Of a stretch of 64,000 bases of DNA, positions 22,958 through 59,536 are shown piece by piece. The stretch spans positions 23,697-87,696 of the forward strand of contig CAZSNA010000001.1 in the NCBI GenBank assembly GCA_964607825.1, in the 5' to 3' direction. The notes beneath the pieces are model-generated. The model had not been told where the DNA came from, searched no databases, and was given only the letters and a program-made list of their open reading frames with translations. The stretch's first letter is position 1. Each line of letters opens with the position of its first letter. The DNA is from an uncultured Fibrobacteraceae bacterium. GTDB lineage: Bacteria > Krumholzibacteriota > Krumholzibacteriia > LZORAL124-64-63. The position numbers were made by a program, and so were the translations under genes.

Positions 22958-24046
22958 CTAGAAGCGGGCGGTGAGGCTGATCCGATGGGTCTCCTCGTCG
23001 ATCCCGAGCATGTCGCCGGCGTAGGCGTAGTCGATGGTCAGCCGCGAGACGCGGAAGCCGGCGCCCATGGTGATGTCGTTCAGGCTCCAGCCCGAATCGA
23101 AGCCTCCGCGCAGGAAGACCTTCTCGTGGAAGGCCAGCTCGCCGCCGAAGTGGATGTTCGTGCTGAGCGAGCCGGCGCTGTACTGGTCCGCCTCGCGCCG
23201 GTTGTCGAAGCGCGTCTCGGCGCTGGTGGCCAGGGTCACGCGCGCGCTCCACTCGGGCAGCATCAGGTGGTAGGCCAGGGCGGGCACCAGCGCCGGGCTG
23301 ATGTACTCGGTCAGGCTGTAGCCGTCGGGTCCGCTCCAGGCCAGCACCGTGGTGGTGATGTCCTGCAGCTTCAGGCCGAAGTCGAGGCCGCGCCAGACGC
23401 GAGGCCGGATCAGGCCCAGGTCGAGACCGATGCCCAGGCTGTTGTAGTCGCCCACGCTCTGACGGATGAACTTGACCGAGCCGCCGAGCTCCCAGTCGCC
23501 CTTGCGCTCGGCGTAGGACGCGAAGACGGCCAGCTCGGAATCGCTGGCGAAGCGGAACTGGTCCTGGAGGGTGAACAGGCCCTGGAGCTCGTCGTCGTCG
23601 ACGACGTCGTCGCCGTTCACGTCGAGCTGGTCGAAGAGGTGGTCGGTCAGGGGGATGTCGTCGATGCCGACCCGGATGGCCGAGACGGCGAAGGCGCCGT
23701 CCTCGCCGCCGAGCAGGGACCAGTCCACCGGCTGGGCGTAGGCCACGTAGTCGCGGTCGATCAGGTCGCCGAAGCGCTCGGCGTGCATCAGCAGCAGGTT
23801 CCGCTCGGCGGTGCCGGCGAGGCCGGCGGGGTTCCAGTAGGCCGCCGAGGGATCGTCCGCCACGGCGGTGAAGGCGCCGCCCATGGCCAGGGCGCGGGCG
23901 CCACCGCCGTCGTCCATGAAGGCGCCGGCGTACTTGGCGGCGTCGGCCGCGGCCGGGACGAGGGCGAGACAGGCGGCGAACAGCACGAGCGCCGTCCGCG
24001 CGAGGCGGGGCGACCGGCCGGTTCCGGGATTCGACATGAAGGCTCC
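22958..24046 (-). CDS. Outer-membrane beta-barrel protein of the FadL/PorV-PorQ-like family (candidate T9SS-associated OMP)
   Basis: Signal peptide MSNPGTGRSPRLARTALVLFAACLALVPAAADA followed by the family-typical GGGARALAMGGAFTAVADDPSAAYWNPAGLAG motif. Alternating beta-strand pattern, C-terminal aromatic (…LTARF). GAGGAG SD before the ATG at ~24044-24046. Confidence 0.5.
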   Translation of the reverse strand, partial: GAFMSNPGTGRSPRLARTALVLFAACLALVPAAADAAKYAGAFMDDGGGARALAMGGAFTAVADDPSAAYWNPAGLAGTAERNLLLMHAERFGDLIDRDYVAYAQPVDWSLLGGEDGAFAVSAIRVGIDDIPLTDHLFDQLDVNGDDVVDDDELQGLFTLQDQFRFASDSELAVFASYAERKGDWELGGSVKFIRQSVGDYNSLGIGLDLGLIRPRVWRGLDFGLKLQDITTTVLAWSGPDGYSLTEYISPALVPALAYHLMLPEWSARVTLATSAETRFDNRREADQYSAGSLSTNIHFGGELAFHEKVFLRGGFDSGWSLNDITMGAGFRVSRLTIDYAYAGDMLGIDEETHRISLTARF

Positions 24047-24096
24047 TCGCATTCCCAGGGGTCAGGAATCAGGGTCCGGGACGTTCAGCAAGGCCG

Positions 24097-24119: not shown

Positions 24120-24149
24120 ATTATACGACAGGGCCCGCACCGGGGCCAA
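24120..24149 (-). promoter_or_regulatory. Sigma70-like promoter for the PorV-like gene (TTGGCC-N18-TATAAT on the minus strand)
   Basis: Reverse complement reads ttggccccggtgcgggccctgtcgtataat with a perfect -10 hexamer. Confidence 0.4.
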
Positions 24150-24162
24150 GCCCGAGTCCGGT

Positions 24163-25743
24163 CTAACCCAGTCCGTACTTCTTGAGTTTCCGATAGAGCG
24201 TGCGCTCGCTGATGCCCAGGCGTTCGGCCGCCAGGCGACGCTTTCCGCCGGTCGCCCGCAGGGCCTGTTCGATCAGCGCGTGCTCGGCGCTCTCCAGGTC
24301 GCCGTCGCCGGCGACGGGTTCCGTCGAGTAGCCGGCCTCGCCGGCGAAGGTGTCCACGACGCGGCCGTCGAAACCCACCGGTCCGCCCACGGGACCGTCG
24401 ACCGACAGGGCCGCCTTGATCCGCTTCAGGTCCTCCCGCATCTCCAGCAGGGTGGCCATGATCAGTTCGGTCTCCCGCCCCGCCGTCATGGGGCCCACGG
24501 GCACCGGCAGCCGGTCCGCCCGGCCGGGCGCCCGGCCCGTGAGGATCTCCTCGGGCAGGTCCGCGGTCTCGATCATGCCGGTCTGCTTGAAGACGGCCAT
24601 CGACCGGATCGCGTTGCGGAGCTCACGCACGTTGCCGGGCCAGGGATAGGACGTGAGCAGATCCAGCGCCGGGCGGGCGATGCCGCGCAGGGAGAAGCCG
24701 TGCTCGCCGTTCTCCTGCTCCAGGAAGGTCCGGGCCAGGATGGGGACGTCCTCAGGCCGGTCGCGCAGCGGCGGCGTGGGGATGACCACCACGCGCAGAC
24801 GGTAGTAGAGGTCCTGGCGGAAGCGCCCGGCCTCCACCTCGGCGGCCAGGTCGCGATGGGTGGCCGCCACCAGGCGGATATCGCTGCGCTCGGTGCGGGT
24901 GCCGCCCACGGGCGTGAACTCCCCCGTCTCCAGGGCGCGCAGGAAGCGGGTCTGCATGGCCAGGGGCAGCTCGGCCACCTCGTCCAGGAAGAGGGTGCCC
25001 CCGTCCGCGCGCTTGAAGACGCCGTCGTGACGGCTCACCGCGCCGGTGAAGGCGCCCTTCTCGTGACCGAAGAGCTCGCTCTCCAGGACGCCCTCGCTCA
25101 GGGCGCCGCAGTTGAGGCTGACGAAGGGCTTGTCGGCGCGGCGGGAATGGTGATGGAGGGCGCGGGCGACCAGCTCCTTGCCGGTGCCGCTCTCCCCGAG
25201 CACGAGCACGTTCACGTCCAGGGGGGCCGCCTGGGCGATCAGGGCGATCATCTGGTTGACCGCGCGCGAGCGGCCGGCGATGCCGCTGCGCTGGCGCACC
25301 TCGCGCAGCTTGAGCAGCCGCTCCACCTCCAGCCGCAGCTCGTCCGCGCCCACGTTGGGCGCGAGCCGCCGCAGGGCGCCGCGATGGGGCTCGTCCTGCA
25401 GGCCCGACAGCACGGCCGGCGTGCCCAGCAGGATGAGGTCGGCGTCGCCCTTGAGGGTCAGGAACTTCTCGACCACGTGGCGGGAGCGGCCGAACTCGGC
25501 GGTGTCGAAGATCAGCAGGGCGCCCTCGCCCTCGGCGAAGAGGGCCAGGGCCTCCGAGGGGGAATCGTGGAGGCTGAGATCGACGCCCGGCAGGTGCCAG
25601 TCGGCGACGGTCTTGTAGAGGGCGGGTCTGCGTCCCAGGAGCGCGACGACGTGCGACACGGAAGGTCCTCCTGCTATTCTGTCAGACGATATGACATGCG
25701 AGCGCTCGGCGAGTGCGCGGCCAATCCGCTGATACGATAGCAT
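24163..25743 (-). CDS. fleQ: Sigma54-dependent transcriptional activator, FleQ/FlrA-like (degenerate N-terminal receiver-like domain, AAA+ sigma54-interaction domain, C-terminal Fis-type HTH)
   Basis: Walker A GESGTGKELVARALH, GAFTGA motif (EKGAFTGA), HTH GGKRRLAAERLGISERTLYRKLKKYG. N-terminal ~140 aa lacks the DD/phospho-acceptor pattern. Sits at the edge of the flagellar cluster. Confidence 0.75.
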   Translation of the reverse strand: MLSYQRIGRALAERSHVISSDRIAGGPSVSHVVALLGRRPALYKTVADWHLPGVDLSLHDSPSEALALFAEGEGALLIFDTAEFGRSRHVVEKFLTLKGDADLILLGTPAVLSGLQDEPHRGALRRLAPNVGADELRLEVERLLKLREVRQRSGIAGRSRAVNQMIALIAQAAPLDVNVLVLGESGTGKELVARALHHHSRRADKPFVSLNCGALSEGVLESELFGHEKGAFTGAVSRHDGVFKRADGGTLFLDEVAELPLAMQTRFLRALETGEFTPVGGTRTERSDIRLVAATHRDLAAEVEAGRFRQDLYYRLRVVVIPTPPLRDRPEDVPILARTFLEQENGEHGFSLRGIARPALDLLTSYPWPGNVRELRNAIRSMAVFKQTGMIETADLPEEILTGRAPGRADRLPVPVGPMTAGRETELIMATLLEMREDLKRIKAALSVDGPVGGPVGFDGRVVDTFAGEAGYSTEPVAGDGDLESAEHALIEQALRATGGKRRLAAERLGISERTLYRKLKKYGLG

Positions 25744-26629: not shown

Positions 26630-27574
26630 CTAGGTTCTCAGCGGGACATCCAACTCCATCAGGGCCGACGCCAACTTGATCAGCGGCGGCATCGCGAGAC
26701 CGGCCATGATGTTGATCTTCTCCACCAGCTCGCGCTTCAGATCCGACTCCTCGCCGTCGCTGCGCTGTTCGCGGATCTCGCGGGTCAGGCGGCTGAGGGA
26801 CTTGCGACCGTCGCTGCGCTGGATCTTGCCGCGCAGCCGCAGGATCGCCTTGGTGTGGATCTGGCACACGCGCGATTCGGTCACGTCGAGGATCTCGCCG
26901 ATCTCCTTGAGGGTGAGCTCCTCGTAGTAGTAGAGCACCAGCACGAGCTGCTCCTTGTCGGAGAGCTCGCCCAGGCTGCCCGCGACCAGGGCGCGCATCT
27001 CGTCCTCGGAGACGCTGGTCTCGGCGTCGGGCGTGCGGGTGTCGGGCAGGTAGTCGCCCAGACTGGAGCTGTTGGAATCGTCGTCCGAGTTGTCGGCGTC
27101 CAGGGAGACGATGGTGGCCACGGCCACCTCGTCCATCATCTGCGACAGCTCGCCGCGACTGACGCCCAGGTCCTTGGCGATCTCCTCGTCCGTGGGCGTG
27201 CGCCCGAAGCGCGCCTCCAGTCTGACGAAGGCGTCCTCGAGCTGGCGCGCCTTGCGGCGCAGCGAGCGCGGGAACCAGTCCTGCGAGCGCAGCTCGTCGA
27301 GGATCGCGCCGCGGATGCGCGGGATCGCGTAGGTCTCGAACTTGTTCCCGCGCCGGTAGTCGTAGTTGTCGATGGCCTGGATCAGGCCCAGCAACCCGGC
27401 GGAGATCAGATCCTTGTGGTCCACGTAATGGGGCAGTCCGATGGACATGCGCCCCGCCACGAACTTGACCACCCGCGCGTAGAGCTCGACCAGGTCCCGG
27501 CGGGCCTCCTGGTCCTCGCCCGCCTGCAGGCGCTCCCAGAGTTCGAAATGGGCGATGGTTTCTGTCTTCAGCAT
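26630..27574 (-). CDS. fliA: Flagellar sigma factor sigma28 (FliA/SigD), with a ~60-aa C-terminal extension
   Basis: Region 2 (HKDLISAGLLGLIQAIDNYDYRRGNKFETYAIPRIRGAILDELR), region 3 and region 4 HTH (LTLKEIGEILDVTESRVCQIHTKAILRL). 314 aa, against ~240 typical. Confidence 0.9.
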   Translation of the reverse strand: MLKTETIAHFELWERLQAGEDQEARRDLVELYARVVKFVAGRMSIGLPHYVDHKDLISAGLLGLIQAIDNYDYRRGNKFETYAIPRIRGAILDELRSQDWFPRSLRRKARQLEDAFVRLEARFGRTPTDEEIAKDLGVSRGELSQMMDEVAVATIVSLDADNSDDDSNSSSLGDYLPDTRTPDAETSVSEDEMRALVAGSLGELSDKEQLVLVLYYYEELTLKEIGEILDVTESRVCQIHTKAILRLRGKIQRSDGRKSLSRLTREIREQRSDGEESDLKRELVEKINIMAGLAMPPLIKLASALMELDVPLRT

Positions 27575-27612: not shown

Positions 27613-27627
27613 AGCAGTTTCCGTGCC
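27613..27627 (-). promoter_or_regulatory. Candidate sigma54 promoter upstream of fliA (GGCACG-N5-TGCT on the minus strand)
   Basis: Reverse complement gGGCACGgaaacTGCTg satisfies GG-N10-GC with a strong -24 element. About 40 nt upstream of the fliA ATG. Confidence 0.35.
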
Positions 27628-27632
27628 CGTCG

Positions 27633-47973: not shown

Positions 47974-48276
47974 CTAGACCTGCATCTGCATGATCGTGTT
48001 GTAGCTCTCCAGCAGCTTGTTCCGCACCTCGAGCATGAGCTCGAAGGCCAGCTGCGCCTCCTCGGCGGCGATCATCACGTCGTGGACCTCGCCCACGTGT
48101 CCGGAGACCGCGCCCTCGATGACCTCGTCGCGGAACGACTGGGCGTCGTTCACCGCGGAGACGGCCTCTTGCAGTTTCGTTGCAAAGGACGGACCAGCCC
48201 CGGCGCCCGCGGCGTTTCCGCCGTAGACCTGCCGCGGATCGACGGCTCCGGGTATCCTGACGGCGTTGATGGCCAT
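47974..48276 (-). CDS. fliE: Flagellar hook-basal body protein FliE
   Basis: 100 aa; C-terminal …AAEEAQLAFELMLEVRNKLLESYNTIMQMQV typical of FliE. Confidence 0.85.
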   Translation of the reverse strand: MAINAVRIPGAVDPRQVYGGNAAGAGAGPSFATKLQEAVSAVNDAQSFRDEVIEGAVSGHVGEVHDVMIAAEEAQLAFELMLEVRNKLLESYNTIMQMQV

Positions 48277-49713: not shown

Positions 49714-50781
49714 TCAGCGGGCGTGCAGGCTGTCGATGCCATAGGGCGCGCCCTCCTTCCGGATGTCGGCCAGGGTGACGGCCGCCTCGGCCAGGGCGCA
49801 GGCGCGCAACTGCCAGGAGGCGGGGTCGGTTGCGTTGCAGGATTCCTCGAGCAGCGGCGCGGCCTCTTCGTAGCGGCCGGCCAGCATCAGATCGTAGGCG
49901 ATCACGTAGCGGGCCCAGCGGCCGGCCTCGACATCGTCGCGCGCCGCCAGCAGGGTATAGAGCCGATAGGCGTCGCGGCGGCGATCCGTCACCAGCAGCA
50001 GGTCCGGCAGGGTGCGGACGAACCAGGCCACGTGGGCCGGTTCGAGTCGCTCGCTGAGACGTGCGTCGCTCGCCAGGGACAGCAGCAGGGGCGCGGCCTC
50101 GGACGGCCGGTCGCGTCGGACAAGCGCGAAGGCGTGCCAGAAGCGGACTTCCGCCGGCAGCCTGTCGATCTGGGCGCCCACCTTCTCGATCAGCAGGTTC
50201 AGGTTGTTCCGGTCGTGCCGGCCGAGGTAGTGGCGATAGGCCAGGACGACCGCGCCGGCGCGCCGCTCGAGCCGGGGGGCCCCCACGGTGTTCAGGAGCT
50301 GTTCGATGATCAGCAGCGAATCGCCCGACTGGATCGCCGTGGCGAAGATCTCGCGGGACAGGTCGTCGTCCACGGCGGTGGCGCCGCCCATGTCCGACAC
50401 GGCCATGCCGTACCAGTCCAGGGCGCTCTGGTAGTCCAGGATCTCGGCGCTGGAGCGCGCGTGGTTGATTCCCCGGACCGCGTCGCCGAATTCACGATCA
50501 TCCCAGGCGCGGCCGACGGACTCGTCGTAGTCCAGCAGGGCGCGGGCGGCGGTCAGCCGTCGCTCGGGACCGCCGGCGCCGATCTCGGCCTCGGTGCGGC
50601 CGGTCGGGTAGAGACGCGCCTTGGGCTCCGCGTCCAGGGCCTGCAGCCACTGGGCGTAGCCGAGCAGGGTGGCGCGGGAGAGCCCCTTGGCCGCACGGGC
50701 CTCGCCGTCGATCAGGACCGCGAAGAACGCGATCCAGACCCACAGGACGACCACCGGGCCATTTTCTTGACGAAGGCGCAT
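49714..50781 (-). CDS. Hypothetical 355-aa protein with an N-terminal signal/anchor and an Ala/Leu/Arg-rich helical-repeat body, preceded by a sigma54 promoter
   Basis: N-terminal hydrophobic segment VVVLWVWIAFFAVLIDGEARA, high GC3 coding. First gene after the fleR terminator, upstream of flgN-like and flgB. No family recognised. Confidence 0.4.
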   Translation of the reverse strand: MRLRQENGPVVVLWVWIAFFAVLIDGEARAAKGLSRATLLGYAQWLQALDAEPKARLYPTGRTEAEIGAGGPERRLTAARALLDYDESVGRAWDDREFGDAVRGINHARSSAEILDYQSALDWYGMAVSDMGGATAVDDDLSREIFATAIQSGDSLLIIEQLLNTVGAPRLERRAGAVVLAYRHYLGRHDRNNLNLLIEKVGAQIDRLPAEVRFWHAFALVRRDRPSEAAPLLLSLASDARLSERLEPAHVAWFVRTLPDLLLVTDRRRDAYRLYTLLAARDDVEAGRWARYVIAYDLMLAGRYEEAAPLLEESCNATDPASWQLRACALAEAAVTLADIRKEGAPYGIDSLHAR

Positions 50782-50825: not shown

Positions 50826-50842
50826 TTCGCAATCGACATGCC
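50826..50842 (-). promoter_or_regulatory. Sigma54 promoter (aGGCATG-tcga-TTGCGa on the minus strand) upstream of the 355-aa gene
   Basis: Reverse complement of tcgcaatcgacatgcct. GG-N10-GC spacing is exact, with a good match to TGGCACG-N4-TTGCA. Confidence 0.5.
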
Positions 50843-50859
50843 TGCCGGGCGGCGGGCAC

Positions 50860-50913: not shown

Positions 50914-52340
<1,427 letters not shown>

Positions 52341-52344
<4 letters not shown>

Positions 52345-54674
52345 GACATCTCCTGTTCCTGGGCGGCCGGTGCGGTCTCCTCGGAGTCCCGCAAGTCGGG
52401 CAACAAGATGGCGAAAATGGTGCCGTTCCCGTCGCAGTCGACGGAAATGCGGCCGGCGTGGGCCTTGACGATCTTGCGGCAGATGGACAAGCCCAGGCCC
52501 GTGCCTGAGTTCTTGGTCGTGTAGAAGGGACGGAAGATGCGGTCGCGGTCCGCGGGCGCCACGCCGGGCCCCTCGTCCGTGACCGCGAGACGGAAACCGG
52601 GGCGCACGCGGGACTCCCCGCTCACGGGGTCGTCCACCAGCAGGTCGTCCACGCGGGTCAGGGTGGCCGAGACGGTGCCGCCGGCGGGCGAGGCGTCCAC
52701 GGCGTTGAACAGCAGGTTCAGCACCACCTGCTTGAGCTGGGTGCCGTCGGCCGCGAGGGTCGCGCTCTCGCCGCGGGGCAGGTCGCGCCCCAGGCCCAGC
52801 CGCACGTCCTTGTCGTCGGCGCGGGGGCGCGCCAGCACCAGGCTGTCGCGCAGCAGGCGGTCGAGGTCCACGTGGCCGAGTTCGGGTTCGTAGGGGCGCA
52901 CGAACTGGAGCATGCGGGTGATGGTGTCGTTGATCCGGCCCACCTCGCCGGTGATCACGTCGATGTAGCGGCGGCGCGGGTCGTCGTCCTCCAGGTTGTC
53001 GCCGAGCAGTTCGGCCTGGGCGCTCAGGCCCATCAGCGGATTGCGGATCTCGTGGGCCAGGGCCGCCGACATCTCCACCAGGCTCTCCAGGGCGTCGGCG
53101 CGGCGGGTCTCCTGGGCCAGCCGCTTGACCGGGCGGAGGTCCTCCAGCACGACCACGCGCCAGAGCTCGTCGCGGGCGCGGCCCGGCATCAGGTGGGCCT
53201 GGACCATCACCGGGACCGCGGTGCCGTCCGCGCGCACGACCCGCCCCTCCCCGTAGAAGGGCTCGGGATCCTCGTGCTTGAAGGCGGCCAGGGCCGGCCC
53301 CTCCTGGTCCTCCAGGCGCAGCATGGCGTCCAGGAGCAGTTCCGGCAGACCCTCCAGGTGGAAGGTGTCGCGGCGGAAGAAGGCCGAGGTGGACCCGGTG
53401 TCGTCGGGGTGGCGACCGCGTCCGAGGGCCGTGTCGGGCTCCGTGATGATGCGCGGCGCTTGGGCGCGGCCGGTGACCAGTTCGCGGCCGCCCCGGTTGC
53501 AGAAGATGGTGCGGCCCAGGTCGTCCAGAACCCAGATGCCGCTGTCCACCGCCTCGAGCACCCGCGAATTGAAGGTGCCGAGCTCGCGCATGCGGTCGAG
53601 CATCTGGGCCGCCGCCACCTCCTCGGCCAGGATGATCTGGGCGGTGCGCAGGAAGGCGAGCTGGCCGCTGGTGGCCGTGCGCGGCTGGAAGTCCAGCAGC
53701 AGCAGGTAGCCGAGGCAGGCGTGCATGTGGTCCAGGGACAGGGCCGCCACCACGGGCAGCGTGTCGTCGCGCTCCGCTTCGGGTTCCAGGGTGATCACGA
53801 CGGGCTCGCCGGGATCCCCGTCCTCGCGCCGGCGTTCGGCCTCGAGACGGGTCAGCACCCGGTCCCAGCCCTCCTCGTTCCAGTGGAAGGTCTGGCGGGG
53901 CGCGAAGGGGGCGTCGGGCGCGGGACGCAGCACCAGGGCGGCGCCCTGGGCGCCCACGAAGTCGGCCATGGTGCCCAGGAGCGACTCGAGGGTGCTGTCC
54001 CAGTTGGGCGTGGTGCTCAGCTCGCGCACGATGGTGTAGAGCAGCGAGAGCTGGTCCATGTGCTCGGTCAGGGCCTGGTTGGCCTCTTCCAGGCGCAGGT
54101 GCGAACGGGCCAGATCGTCACCGGCGCGCACGAGTTCCACCTGCAGGCGTTGACGGTGCTCGAGCAGCCGCTCGGTGGTCTCCTGCTGGGCGGCCTCGAG
54201 ACGATCCGCCTCGTCGAAGACGGCCAGACGCGCGCCAACCCGCTGGAGCAGGTCTTCCCACGCCGCGTCGTCGCCCAGGGGGATCGCGTCGAAGAGGCCG
54301 GCGCGGAAGCAGGCCGGCAAGAGCAGGTCCTCGCTGCCGTCATGGAGCAGGACCGGCAAGGCGGCGGGGTTGATCACGCGCAGGGCCCGCACGAGTTCGG
54401 GCAGATCCGCGGCGGCGCGTCGTTCGCGCGTCAGGGGCAGGATCACGAGCATGGGCCGGGGCCCGTCGGACGCTCTCGCGCGCAAGTCCACGAGCAGATC
54501 GCTCGCCGCGGCGTGGAAGATCAACTCGTCGGTCGTGGCCGGAACCAGGTCGGTCCAGGCGGAATCCGCGACCACGAGAATGGGAAATCGATCCGGATCT
54601 CGATCTGAAAAACGAAGTGGCACGCCGCCCCCCGAGCGCTCGAGTCGTCGATCACTGGAACCGCTGTCGGACAA
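52341..54674 (-). CDS. fleS: Cytoplasmic sensor histidine kinase (FleS/FlrB-like) with a long N-terminal region (pseudo-receiver-like plus PAS/GAF-like). Apparently a TTG start
   Basis: HisKA H-box LAHEIRNPLMGLSAQAELL, HATPase_c N/G boxes (NLLFNAVDASPAGG…DEGPGV…GTGLGLSICRKIV). No TM helices seen. An in-frame TAA lies 9 codons upstream of the TTG. Confidence 0.8.
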
Positions 54675-54778
54675 GGAGTAACGGACAGACTGTAAGGTTT
54701 CTTACCAGACGCGGCAAGTCAACATCTATCTGAGTTGGGCAGGAAAAGAGACGTTTCGGTCGGTGGGAGCGCCCCGCT

Positions 54779-55153
54779 CTACTCGAGCAGGGTGTCGAGT
54801 CCGCGCATGAGTTCGGTGAGCCGGCCGGCCACCTGCTGCCGGATCTCGTTCGAACCGTACACGCCGGACTGCAGCCGACGCTGGACGGTCTCCATCTTCT
54901 CCCTGCGCACCGGATCCGCCTCGTCCAGCTTGGCCTGCCCCGCCTCGAGCAAGTCCCGCATCTGCTCCAGCTTGCGCGCCGACGACGAGATCTCCAGCCG
55001 CTCCCCCTCCGGCCTGACGGAGGCCTGGGTCTCGGCACCGGCCTCGGCCTGGGCGGCGCGAGCGCCGTCCGCTTCCGCTTGACGCGTCTGCTGGAACTGG
55101 GCCAGTGCGCGGGGATCGTTGAGCTGCGAGTGGTCGATCTTGGGGGTCGGCAT
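54779..55153 (-). CDS. flgM: Anti-sigma28 factor FlgM
   Basis: 124 aa, low complexity, with the FlgM signature C-terminus …GERLEISSSARKLEQ…VRREKMETVQRRLQSGVYGSNEIRQQVAGRL. A sigma28 promoter lies upstream. Confidence 0.7.
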   Translation of the reverse strand: MPTPKIDHSQLNDPRALAQFQQTRQAEADGARAAQAEAGAETQASVRPEGERLEISSSARKLEQMRDLLEAGQAKLDEADPVRREKMETVQRRLQSGVYGSNEIRQQVAGRLTELMRGLDTLLE

Positions 55154-55254
55154 CTGGGCTTCGCTCCTGGGTCTCGTGGGTTCGGACTCGGAATCAGGGC
55201 CATGCTAGCAAGGCCGGGACCAGGCGACAAGGTCGGCGACGCTGCGTGTAGTGG

Positions 55255-55282
55255 TTATCGGACGAGAGGGCATTATCTTTAG
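55255..55282 (-). promoter_or_regulatory. Sigma28 (FliA) promoter for flgM: TAAAGATA-N11-tCCGATAA on the minus strand
   Basis: Reverse complement of ttatcggacgagagggcattatcttta. Spacer is exactly 11 nt. About 95-nt leader to the flgM ATG. Confidence 0.6.
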
Positions 55283-55434
55283 CATATAATCCGCATAATG
55301 TGCGTATAGACACCTTCCTGGATCTCGTCATCCACCGTCCTTGACCGATACACCGTTCATTCTATCCATCAAGCTCGCGGCACGGTCGTGTGAACCCGAT
55401 TCCGACATATTCGGGATTGCCGGGAAGATTGGGC

Positions 55435-55462
55435 TAAAGTTTCGCCCCCCCGCCGCCGATAC
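55435..55462 (+). promoter_or_regulatory. Sigma28 (FliA) promoter for fliC: TAAAGTTT-N12-GCCGATAc
   Basis: Direct reading of ctaaagtttcgcccccccgccgccgatacc. About 140-nt leader to the fliC ATG at 55611, with SD aggaaggag. Confidence 0.6.
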
Positions 55463-55610
55463 CTACTCCACGACAGAATCGTGTCGGTCGGCGAGAAGGC
55501 CGAACAACCGCAACGAAAGGAAGTCCAGCCGATCATCGACCGTCATGCGGGCCCCGGGCCCGCGCGAGTCAGGCAAGGATGTCTGACACGACCCTAGGAA
55601 GGAGCTAATC

Positions 55611-56450
55611 ATGTCCCTGCGCATCAACACCAACGTCGCCAGCCTCAACGCTCAGCGTAACCTGTACAACACCACCATGAATCTGAACAAGTCGCTGGAG
55701 CGGCTCAGCTCGGGTCTGCGCATCAACCGCGCCGGCGACGACGCTGCCGGCCTGGCGATCTCTGAGAACCTGAAGTCCGACATCCGCGCCCTGGAGCAGT
55801 CCGCGCGGAACGCGGCCGACGGCATCTCCATGATCCAGGTGGCCGAGGGCGCGCTGAACGAGGTCAGTGACATCCTCATCCGCATGCGCGAGCTGGCCCA
55901 GCAGGCCTCGAACGAAACCCTGGGCACCGCCGAGCGCGGCTACCTGGACACGGAGTACGAGGCCCTGGCCGCGGAGATCACCCGTATCGCCGACAGCACC
56001 GAGTTCAACGGCACCAACCTGCTGGACAGCTCGGCGTCGTCCCGCGACATCCAGGTCGGTCTCTCGAACACCGCCGCCGACGTCATCACGCTGGACTTCA
56101 GCACCGACACCGACGCGACCGCGCTCGGCGTTGATGCTGCTGCGGCCGATCTGACCGGCGCCAACAACACGAACGCCCAGGCGGCCATGGCGTTGATCGA
56201 GACGGCCATCGACTCGATCAGCAGCACGCGGGCCTCCTTCGGCGCCTCCCAGAACCGCCTGGAGTCCTCCATCCGCGGTATTCACAACTCGGTGGAGAAT
56301 CTCTCCGCGGCGAACAGCGCCATCCGGGACGTGGACATCGCGGCCGAGACCGCGCACATGACCAGCTCGCAGATCCTGCAGCAGGCCGGTGTGTCGGTGC
56401 TGGCCCAGGCGAACATGTCGCCGCAGATGGCTCTGATGCTGCTGCAGTAA
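55611..56450 (+). CDS. fliC: Flagellin (short, 279 aa)
   Basis: N-terminal D0/D1 MSLRINTNVASLNAQRNLYNTTMNLNKSLERLSSGLRINRAGDDAAGLAISE… and C-terminal …SQILQQAGVSVLAQANMSPQMALMLLQ. Confidence 0.95.
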   Translation: MSLRINTNVASLNAQRNLYNTTMNLNKSLERLSSGLRINRAGDDAAGLAISENLKSDIRALEQSARNAADGISMIQVAEGALNEVSDILIRMRELAQQASNETLGTAERGYLDTEYEALAAEITRIADSTEFNGTNLLDSSASSRDIQVGLSNTAADVITLDFSTDTDATALGVDAAAADLTGANNTNAQAAMALIETAIDSISSTRASFGASQNRLESSIRGIHNSVENLSAANSAIRDVDIAAETAHMTSSQILQQAGVSVLAQANMSPQMALMLLQ

Positions 56451-58343: not shown

Positions 58344-58672
58344 TGGATCCCGATCTCAACCGACTGATCGCCCTGACCGAGGAGATGTCCGTCGCCTTCG
58401 CGCGCGACGATCTCGACCGGTGCGCCGAACTGCTCGACGCCCGGGGCGGCCTGCTGCGCGATCTGCATGCGCGCTACGGTCCCGGCGGCCCTCTCCCCGT
58501 CCCCGAGGGCCTGCAGCGGGTGCTGGACGAGGTCAACGCCCAGGACCGGGCCCTCGAGGCGCGCCTGACCGGCGCCCTGGCCGAGACGGGTCGTCGTCTC
58601 GGTGACCTGCAGCAGAAGACCCGCCGCGGCGGCGACGGGTCGAGCGGGATCCACCTGAATCGGCGAGCCTAG
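58344..58672 (+). CDS. Small helical protein downstream of fliS (FliT-like position); GTG start
   Basis: ~109 aa, L/A/R/D/E-rich heptads (…[37 protein letters not shown]…[19 protein letters not shown]…), high GC3. The competing minus-strand ORF is Arg/Gly/Pro junk. Confidence 0.35.
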
Positions 58673-58914
58673 TCGGTCTCTTCCTCTTCCTTCTTGTCCT
58701 TGTCCAGGAACTTCTTGGGATCGGGCTGATCCGAATCGGCGGCCTTCATGGTGATGTTCTTGATCTCTTCGTAGATCTCGTGACGGTGGACCGGAATCGA
58801 GCGCGGCGCGTCGATGCCGATCTGGACCTGGTCGCCACGTATATCGACGATCATGATCGAGATGTCGTCCCCGATCATGATCTTCTCGTTGCGCTTGCGG
58901 CTCAGGATTAACAC
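58669..58914 (-). CDS. csrA: Carbon storage regulator CsrA (81 aa, acidic C-terminal tail)
   Basis: [51 protein letters not shown]… is near-invariant CsrA. Tail is …[11 protein letters not shown]. Confidence 0.93.
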
Positions 58915-58963: not shown

Positions 58964-59536
58964 TCAGCGCACGTCTACGAGCTCGGCCTCCGGGTCGCGC
59001 ACCGTCGGTTCCGCCGACCCATCCTCATCATATCCACCCGTCATGGCCTTGTCCACCGCTGTTCCGACCACCGTCTCGGGGTGTCCGGCGGCGTAGGCCT
59101 GGCAGGCCTCGCCGAACCTGAGCTGGTTGATCTCGTGTCGCATCCCGTAATGACCGCTCTCGAGGATGCACTGTATCCCCTTGCGGTTCTTCACGTTGAC
59201 GACCAGGGGCGCCGACAGGTTGCCCGTGATCCGCTGTCCGCCGGGGTGGACCGTGGAGATGATCATCACCACGATGTCTTCCACGTCCTCGGCGTTGATG
59301 ACCGCCTGCGAGGCGTCGTCGATCTCGAAACTGTAGGCCTCGGTGTAGAAGCCGGGGTCCGTGATCGGCAGTCGGAAGCCCTCGCGATCCAGGCTCTGGA
59401 GCCATTTCATGGGCAATACGGGCTCCATGTCAACCAGAATCCAGCGCTTAAGCTCCGGCAGGCCGACCAGACCGTTCCGGAACGTCAGCACGTCCTCGGG
59501 CCTGTGGGTGCGGGTCTCTTCGTTCGCCTGGCTCAT
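58964..59536 (-). CDS. fliW: Flagellar assembly factor FliW (CsrA antagonist), with a C-terminal extension
   Basis: …[20 protein letters not shown]…[23 protein letters not shown]…[20 protein letters not shown]… matches the FliW family. fliW-csrA adjacency. Confidence 0.85.

Follow-up and report, generated by a model that had tools for sequence, protein, structure and literature searches.

The feedback logic that ties the flagellar sigma-28 factor FliA to its inhibitor FlgM has been laid out repeatedly, and in Campylobacter jejuni flgM is known to be reached both by an RpoN-dependent transcript and from a FliA promoter of its own (PMC11187230). At the level of translation, the leader of the Bacillus subtilis flagellin gene hag carries two CsrA sites, one of them over the Shine-Dalgarno sequence, with FliW as the antagonist (PMC7652899, PMC6529632). 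Here we analyze a 457-bp gap (positions 55154–55610) that separates a flgM-like gene on the minus strand from a flagellin gene on the plus strand, in a 64-kb stretch of DNA (the window; 68% G+C) that comes from an uncultured organism and is known from metagenome assemblies only. We propose that this gap combines two outward-facing sigma-28 promoters, a second promoter for flgM (P2), an A+T-rich patch next to the flgM promoter, and CsrA-type control of flagellin, and on the sequence evidence we regard the package as a whole as likely.

The two sigma-28-type promoters point away from each other. The flgM promoter P1 (55282..55255, minus strand) reads CTAAAGATAATGCCCTCTCGTCCGATAA, that is, TAAAGATA-N11-TCCGATAA, with CTAAAG as its −35 element (55282..55277), a 14-nt spacer, and TCCGATAA as its −10 element (55262..55255), arranged as CTAAAG-ATAATGCCCTCTCG-TCCGATAA. 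The flagellin promoter (55434–55462, plus strand) reads CTAAAGTTTCGCCCCCCCGCCGCCGATAC, that is, TAAAGTTT-N12-GCCGATAC, in which CTAAAG at 55434–55439 and the −10 element GCCGATAC at 55455–55462 are set apart by 15 nt (CTAAAG-TTTCGCCCCCCCGCC-GCCGATAC). A structural reference is the solved open complex of the Pseudomonas aeruginosa fliC promoter, with (−36)TCTAAAG(−30) and (−15)GCCGATAA(−8) at a spacing of 14 nt (PMC12784957); the flgM promoter has the identical spacing, and that of the flagellin promoter is 1 nt longer. Transposing the numbering of that promoter onto the gap (PMC12784957) places the predicted starts at about 55247 on the minus strand for P1 and about 55470 on the plus strand for flagellin.

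Both motifs stand out from the rest of the window. With both strands considered, TAAA-N14-17-CCGATA is matched twice in the 64 kb, at precisely these two promoters, where 0.00 matches are expected, and it is absent from all of 100 shuffles (0/100); the bare hexamer CCGATA occurs at chance rate (8 observed, 11 expected). In a 14-position scan (CTAAAG / GCCGATAA, spacer 12–15, cutoff 11 of 14) both promoters score 13/14 and the sole other site at the cutoff scores 11, so that a check suggested in a preliminary description of this DNA, namely whether the pair would rank highest in a sigma-28 scan, came out in its favor at the scope of the window. Two further candidates in the gap were set aside. 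A lone CCGATAC at 55345–55351, considered as a third site, has no upstream TAAA, is not conserved, and was put down to chance. The 26-nt inverted repeat I1, considered as a separate element, is merely the two promoters facing each other, and the similarity that it shows beyond the −10 elements, in the downstream direction, is not kept in relatives on the side of flgM.

The strongest evidence comes from related loci. A FlgM protein search together with a profile search returned 17 relatives, and exact-protein look-ups supplied the DNA of nine further lineages sharing the gene order flagellin <> flgM–kinase, which allowed the flgM side to be compared in 10 lineages and the flagellin side in the 8 lineages that have it. 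FlgM is only 57–77% identical across this set, and in the gap alignments nearly everything is scrambled apart from discrete conserved blocks; the 120-bp spacer between the promoters (55312–55433), for example, is unalignable, has no conserved columns, and differs in length between lineages. Upstream of flgM, TAAAG is unchanged in all 10 lineages and is followed 14–15 nt later by CCGA(T/A)A in nine, the exception being L018 with TCGAAA. On the other side, all eight flagellin promoters fit CTAAAG-N14/15-(G/A)CCGA(T/A)(A/G), and the −10 element is GCCGATA or ACCGATA in every lineage except L005, which has GCCGAAG.

Could such motifs have arisen by chance in an AT-richer gap, with the genes being read by another sigma factor? 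This is scarcely credible. Even a single match would be expected 0.00 times, the motifs are correctly oriented and are kept in relatives while their surroundings vary, and the window encodes a FliA/WhiG-family sigma-28 factor (fliA, 26630–27574, minus strand; Sigma70 regions r2, r3, and r4; 269 bits against TIGR02479 FliA_WhiG, cut-off 189.6) whose product would be expected to read both promoters. The conservation pattern thus effectively refutes a chance origin. On the other side of the scale, the last base of the flagellin −10 element is C in place of A, the spacer of this promoter exceeds the reference by 1 nt, the FlgM assignment scores under curated cut-offs, and the host is known solely from metagenomes, so that the promoters and sites described here are read from sequence. 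We nevertheless consider it very probable that the gap contains two outward-facing sigma-28 promoters, which serve flgM and flagellin, respectively. The preliminary description had proposed back-to-back FliA-type promoters for flgM and fliC, and their positions, their uniqueness in the window, the presence of fliA, and their retention in relatives all agree with that proposal; conserved promoter blocks amid scrambled DNA are the pattern of functional promoters, and the claim is thereby settled as far as sequence analysis can settle it.

The same bipartite motif, the same targets, and the same feedback logic are found for the late (class 3) FliA promoters that drive fliC and flgM in Escherichia coli and Salmonella and for the fliC promoter of P. 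aeruginosa. In enteric bacteria flgM lies in the flgAMN operon, far from fliC. In the window, by contrast, the two promoters are divergent neighbors in one gap, with 152 bp between their −35 elements.

Our analysis also points to a second promoter for flgM. Downstream of the flgM sigma-28 promoter lies a 30-nt block (P2, 55231..55202, minus strand), C-TTG.CG..TGGT..C..C.TTGCT(A)...T, in which 17 of 30 positions are invariant in 10 lineages and whose distance from the sigma-28 −35 element is nearly constant, at 58–63 nt, in all of them. An explanation at the RNA level was rejected: the consensus fold of the flgM leader shows no structure (−1.6 kcal/mol, 0 covarying pairs), and in a leader without conserved RNA structure the block would therefore act at the level of DNA. 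We consider it highly probable that P2 acts as a promoter, whatever its type. The preliminary description had envisaged a second flgM promoter within the AT-rich stretch discussed below; that such a promoter exists is borne out by the conserved block, its location is not, as the conserved element lies downstream of the sigma-28 promoter.

What type of polymerase would recognize P2? Read as a sigma-54 site, the block contains TGG (55222..55220), N8, and TTGC (55211..55208) on the minus strand, giving TGGTCCCGGCCTTGCT at 55222..55207 and a predicted start at about 55196. All 10 lineages keep TGG(T) and TTGC(T) unchanged at the exact GG-N10-GC spacing of such sites (TGG at −26 to −24, TTGC at −15 to −12), and exact matches to TGGY-N7-TTGCW number 4 in the window, where 0.92 are expected. 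Two genes with a Sigma54_activat domain are present, one at 24163–25743 and the other at 50914–52344 on the minus strand, two genes downstream of flgM and on the same strand. The other sigma-54-like sites described below, before fliA and before the gene at 49714–50781, also count in favor of this reading, as does the two-route flgM of C. jejuni. Read instead as a sigma-70 site, the same block offers TTGTCG (55230..55225), N17, and TAGCAT (55207..55202), again on the minus strand, with a start at about 55195. In that case P2 would be a housekeeping promoter of the form TTG(C/T)CG-N17-TAnnnT that supplies FlgM constitutively at a basal level, and TGGT/TTGC would represent an overlapping operator.

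The two readings divide the invariant positions between them. TTG.CG and the first and last T of TAnnnT are invariant, the A of the latter is kept in nine lineages of 10, and the spacing is exactly 17 bp in each of the 10; a comparable block in front of the downstream kinase gene is built alike (TTGCCG-N17-TACAGT, its spacer containing CTGGT) and, having no GC at −12, cannot be a canonical sigma-54 site. These are points for sigma-70, and a −35/−10 pair explains better than sigma-54 the invariant CTTG.CG and TA...T that lie beside the sigma-54 core and outside the sigma-54 consensus. Further points count against sigma-54: no rpoN was found among the scanned genes of the window, sigma-54 itself we infer only from its activators, and P2 has no conserved upstream activating sequence (UAS) within about 70–150 bp, the only conserved block upstream of it being the sigma-28 promoter. 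Some flagellar activators act without a UAS or from downstream sites, and the missing UAS therefore does not exclude the sigma-54 family. Against sigma-70, both hexamers are weak, with 4/6 matches each (the −10 element of L013 is TTATTT), and in flagellar clusters with FleQ-like and FleR-like activators, early expression of flgM normally depends on sigma-54. Above all, 10 of the 17 "spacer" positions are invariant, a conservation that sigma-70 does not need and that spells TGG-N8-TTGC. Because these positions form exactly a sigma-54 core, we rank sigma-54 first and lean slightly toward P2 being a sigma-54-type promoter; the housekeeping promoter with an overlapping operator is a serious though less probable alternative.

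It is conceivable, if rather doubtful, that both assignments hold and that P2 is a superimposed dual-holoenzyme promoter, in which the sigma-54 −24/−12 elements are nested within the sigma-70 spacer and the start is shared. Were this so, the sigma-54 and sigma-70 polymerases would compete, switching FlgM supply between basal and activator-driven modes, and the block in front of the kinase/activator operon (54717..54689) would represent such a promoter in a degenerate or regulator-bound form.

On either reading, P2 would give flgM a FliA-independent promoter in tandem with its FliA promoter, in parallel to C. jejuni; if P2 is of the sigma-54 type, the arrangement would resemble that in C. jejuni in providing both a sigma-54 route and a sigma-28 route to FlgM. 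In C. jejuni, the sigma-54 input is read-through from the upstream genes flgI and flgJ, whereas the window has a dedicated sigma-54-like element about 50 bp past the sigma-28 start, inside the sigma-28 leader and overlapping sigma-70-like hexamers.

Several other sites in the window bear some resemblance to P2. The conserved block before the kinase gene (54689–54722, minus strand), situated after the stop codon of flgM, is nearly invariant in six lineages as TTGCC-N5-CTGGT(A/C)AGAA(A/T)C(C/T)T-TACA(G/C)T. In sigma-70-like terms it is TTGCCG-N17-TACAGT, with a spacer conserved to an unusual degree, and it resembles P2 (TTGCCG…TGGT); as it lacks GC at −12, it is not a canonical sigma-54 site, and it probably serves the operon of the kinase and the sigma-54 activator as promoter and operator. 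Sigma-54-like sites also occur on the minus strand as GGGCACGGAAACTGCT (27613–27628), in a gap of 58 bp that directly precedes fliA, and as AGGCATGTCGATTGCG (50828–50843), upstream of the gene at 49714–50781 on the rod-gene side of the cluster. Their positions suggest a sigma-54-driven upper tier of the flagellar hierarchy. An exact match to TGGY-N7-TTGCW, TGGTCCGTCCTTTGCA (48181–48196, minus strand), falls within fliE (47974–48276), toward the 5′ end of its coding sequence, and may be either an internal fliF promoter or a chance match.

Immediately upstream of the flgM −35 element, the base composition of the gap changes. The A+T-rich patch (55283–55311) covers about −37 to −64 of P1, and the G+C fraction drops to 0.43 at 55260–55319, compared with about 0.65–0.75 in the flanking coding sequence. 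The patch contains a perfect TATAAT (55285–55290, plus strand), at −38 to −43 of P1, a hexamer of which the window has 2 copies where 0.35 would be expected. The AT-rich stretch with its perfect hexamer, as first noted in the preliminary description, is therefore real. Its composition is a shared trait: the 25 nt upstream of the flgM −35 element are 56–72% A+T in all nine lineages scored (L018 was not among them), the whole loci having 32–42%, and the flagellin promoter, with 44% A+T, lacks such upstream enrichment. What is conserved is the composition of the stretch and not its sequence.

An obvious interpretation of the hexamer, and the one first advanced for it, is a housekeeping promoter. 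TATAAT would then be the −10 element of a plus-strand sigma-70 promoter that sends a FliA-independent transcript from about 55297 toward flagellin, and a perfect 6/6 hexamer that is rare in a 68% G+C window and lies between genes lends this idea some appeal. Its best −35 element, ACGAGA, matches at only 3/6 positions, there is no TG extension, and the sigma-70 scan made no call at this position. The hexamer is found at the same place only in the window and L008, that is, in just one other lineage of nine; TATTAT replaces it in L012, and neither form occurs there in L005 and L007, the two closest relatives. The roughly 170 nt of extra leader would be unconserved, and the promoter would overlap the flgM sigma-28 −35 element back to back. 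Taken together, these observations make a housekeeping promoter at this site very unlikely. The only other TATAAT in the window (24120–24125, minus strand) may be the −10 element of the gene at 22958–24052, which it precedes by about 68 nt within a gap of 110 bp.

The patch might alternatively be bound by a specific protein, either as a UAS or an integration host factor (IHF)-type bend serving P2 or as an operator of P1, much as the preliminary description had allowed for a regulator-binding site. Its distance from the predicted P2 start, about −85 to −115, would suit an enhancer; the window, L008, and L012 have GCATAT(A/T)ATCCGCA in common; and the patch in the window forms an imperfect 22-bp palindrome, GCAyATwATsCGsATwATrTGC, with 16 of 22 positions matching. 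This motif is shared by just three of the 10 lineages and is missing from the other seven, including the two closest, even though P1 and P2 are kept there. Beyond its own imperfect palindrome, GCATATWATCCGCAT does not recur in the window, none of the other candidate sigma-54 sites there is preceded by a copy, and the patch has no match to the IHF consensus. A role as a specific protein site thus appears improbable.

We favor, with some reserve, a third interpretation, in which the patch is an UP-like element of P1 and not an independent promoter. The patch occupies the position contacted by the alpha subunit of RNA polymerase (−37 to −64) and is A+T-rich without being conserved in sequence, and it is on these grounds that an UP-like role is proposed. 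A literature search on UP elements at sigma-28 promoters returned nothing usable. An UP element has reportedly been described by Fredrick et al. in 1995 at the sigma-D promoter of B. subtilis hag. UP elements of sigma-28/sigma-D promoters likewise consist of A/T-rich DNA directly upstream of the −35 element; the patch, at 56–72% A+T across lineages, falls far short of strong UP elements with their almost pure A/T tracts, and the likeness is one of resemblance only.

On the flagellin side, control would extend beyond transcription. The predicted 5′ leader (55470–55610, plus strand; about 141 nt) comprises a long 5′ hairpin, a GC hairpin, a CsrA-type hairpin, and the ribosome-binding site (RBS), and its minimum-free-energy fold of −57.9 kcal/mol (z −1.66) is not exceptional on its own. 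The GC hairpin (GCGGG…CCCGC, 55547–55563, plus strand) lies immediately 5′ of the CsrA-type hairpin and forms in each of the eight lineages with a different inner stem sequence, so that the stem covaries. The CsrA-type hairpin (BS1, 55568–55587, plus strand) is GUCAGGC-AAGGAU-GUCUGAC, a putative high-affinity CsrA site with a 7-bp stem and a GGA (55577–55579) in its hexaloop. Across eight lineages only a single loop base of it varies (U or C), and it agrees at 10 of 12 positions with RUACARGGAUGU, the CsrA consensus obtained by in vitro selection (SELEX), where GGA likewise sits in a hexaloop and most hairpin stems have at most 4 bp (PMC7652899). A putative second site, BS2, coincides with the RBS (55596–55606, plus strand): AGGAAGGAGCU contains two GGA motifs, 8–14 nt before the ATG at 55611 and 20–24 nt from the GGA of BS1. 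Within the RBS, GGAAGGAG (GGAAGGAGCU at 55597–55606; AGGAAGGAG at 55596–55604), GGAAGGAGCT is invariant in the eight lineages.

Two features weigh against BS1 as a CsrA site. Its stem of 7–8 bp is longer than that of most SELEX hairpins, and since the stem never varies there is no covariation, its support being sequence invariance only. No Rfam family matched anywhere in the window at gathering thresholds, and none matched at E≤1 within 54600–55700. On balance, the loop sequence, its conservation, and the position of the second site argue in favor of BS1 and BS2 as CsrA sites in a two-site design, an assignment that we hold to be likely. The leaders of L008, L012, L017, and L019 contain an upstream UUCC(A/G)CC that is predicted to pair with the RBS GGAAGGAG and would in that fold act as an anti-Shine-Dalgarno sequence; the corresponding pairing in the window is weak.

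The putative trans-acting partners are encoded nearby. Genes for FliW (58964–59536, minus strand; Pfam FliW, 3.4e-31) and CsrA (58669–58914, minus strand; Pfam CsrA, 2.7e-25; NCBIfam CsrA above cut-off) are adjacent to each other about 3 kb downstream of the flagellin leader, with flgK and flgL immediately upstream on the same strand. The 81-residue CsrA is about 29 residues longer than the 52-residue CsrA domain.

In its design the leader corresponds to the hag–FliW–CsrA system of B. subtilis, as well as to C. jejuni flaA, the major flagellin under a CsrA–FliW switch in that species, and to Clostridioides difficile fliC, all of which have the same two-site leader with one site over the Shine-Dalgarno sequence. 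The likeness extends to the genes for the partners, with fliW and csrA adjacent after flgK and flgL and a CsrA that carries a C-terminal extension (81 residues in all). The window differs from B. subtilis in belonging to another, uncultured high-G+C lineage, in the 7-bp stem of its upstream site, in the additional covarying GC hairpin, and in that its sites are putative. The preliminary description had called the gap a compact late-gene control hub; this is a fair name for it, which leaves out the translational control of the CsrA/FliW type in the flagellin leader.

The identity of the flanking genes is clear for flagellin and provisional for FlgM. The flagellin gene (55611–56450, plus strand; 279 residues; Flagellin_N, 3e-42; Flagellin_C, 1.6e-24) is the first of a flagellin–fliD–fliS–fliT-like unit, with which the flgK–flgL–fliW–csrA unit converges. 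The flgM-like gene (54779–55153, minus strand) encodes 124 residues and a probable anti-sigma-28 factor, and is followed on its 3′ side by a histidine kinase and then a sigma-54-dependent response regulator. Its product scores 19 bits against Pfam FlgM (cut-off 25) and 30.5 bits against TIGR03824 (cut-off 40.75), and a sequence search of the PDB with the FlgM profile gave nothing meaningful. TIGR03824 is the sole family matched by eight of nine members of this FlgM family, one relative has a precomputed PF04316 match, and the orthologue P0013 is named "anti-sigma factor FlgM" by NCBI, and on these three grounds we use FlgM as a working assignment. Small open reading frames within the gap (81, 61, 55, and 45 residues) were dismissed, as the DNA there is not conserved.

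The wider sampling added little to the set of lineages. A scan of a genome collection with the FlgM of the window gave no match, and the same scan with the FlgM family profile gave one contig of a metagenome-assembled genome, which ends before the flagellin gene; the sole addition from a metagenome scan was a locus that does not differ from L012 in the flgM–flagellin region. L020, which has a FlgM-like protein only 32% identical, another gene order, and none of the conserved blocks, was left out of the comparisons. In this locus, two tandem flagellin genes and an acetyltransferase-like gene lie upstream of the FlgM-like gene (163 residues); its motif of the GCCGATCA type is weak, and a P2 block is absent.

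Two further features of the compared loci concern their organization. In L013, L014, and L015, three independent assemblies of one lineage, the contigs stop 270–410 bp upstream of flgM, which is where the flagellin gene should start; assembly breaks of this kind are typical of multi-copy flagellin genes. In L019, flgM and the kinase are parted by an insertion on the opposite strand (1950–2570), a gene whose 206-residue product is of unknown family; flgM can therefore be separated from the kinase operon as a unit of its own.

How might these elements work together? The motifs, their rarity and conservation, and the presence of fliA, csrA, fliW, and the sigma-54 activator genes are observed in the DNA, and from them we infer the binding events, start sites, and directions of regulation in the following model. 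RNA polymerase carrying FliA would fire outward from the gap, to the left into flgM from about 55247 and to the right into flagellin–fliD–fliS from about 55470. Free FliA would in this way drive the synthesis of filament protein and, at the same time, of the factor that inhibits it, which is the classical loop of negative feedback with an export checkpoint. P2 would furnish a FliA-independent supply of FlgM before the hook–basal body is finished, keeping FliA in check until FlgM is exported; this supply would be driven by one of the two activators of the cluster if P2 is a sigma-54 promoter, and would be basal if it is a sigma-70 promoter. On the flagellin transcript, a CsrA dimer may bind the GGA hairpin together with the GGA-rich RBS and so block translation. 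Export of flagellin would then free FliW, which would remove CsrA and permit the flagellin mRNA to be translated.

Within 457 bp, this uncultured high-G+C lineage would thus bring together three known layers of control: sigma-28 feedback through FlgM, an earlier sigma-54- or sigma-70-type input to flgM, and CsrA/FliW control of flagellin. Each layer has a well-studied counterpart, that of the sigma-28 promoters being the class 3/IV promoters of enteric bacteria and Pseudomonas, and what is known of flagellar regulation is unchanged by their occurrence here. Particular to this locus are the head-to-head arrangement of the promoters for flgM and flagellin, a sigma-54-like promoter within the sigma-28 leader of flgM, and its overlap with sigma-70-like elements. 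The locus should be of use for annotating such genomes, and its conserved motif instances can inform models of sigma-28 promoters, sigma-54 promoters, and CsrA sites beyond the model organisms.

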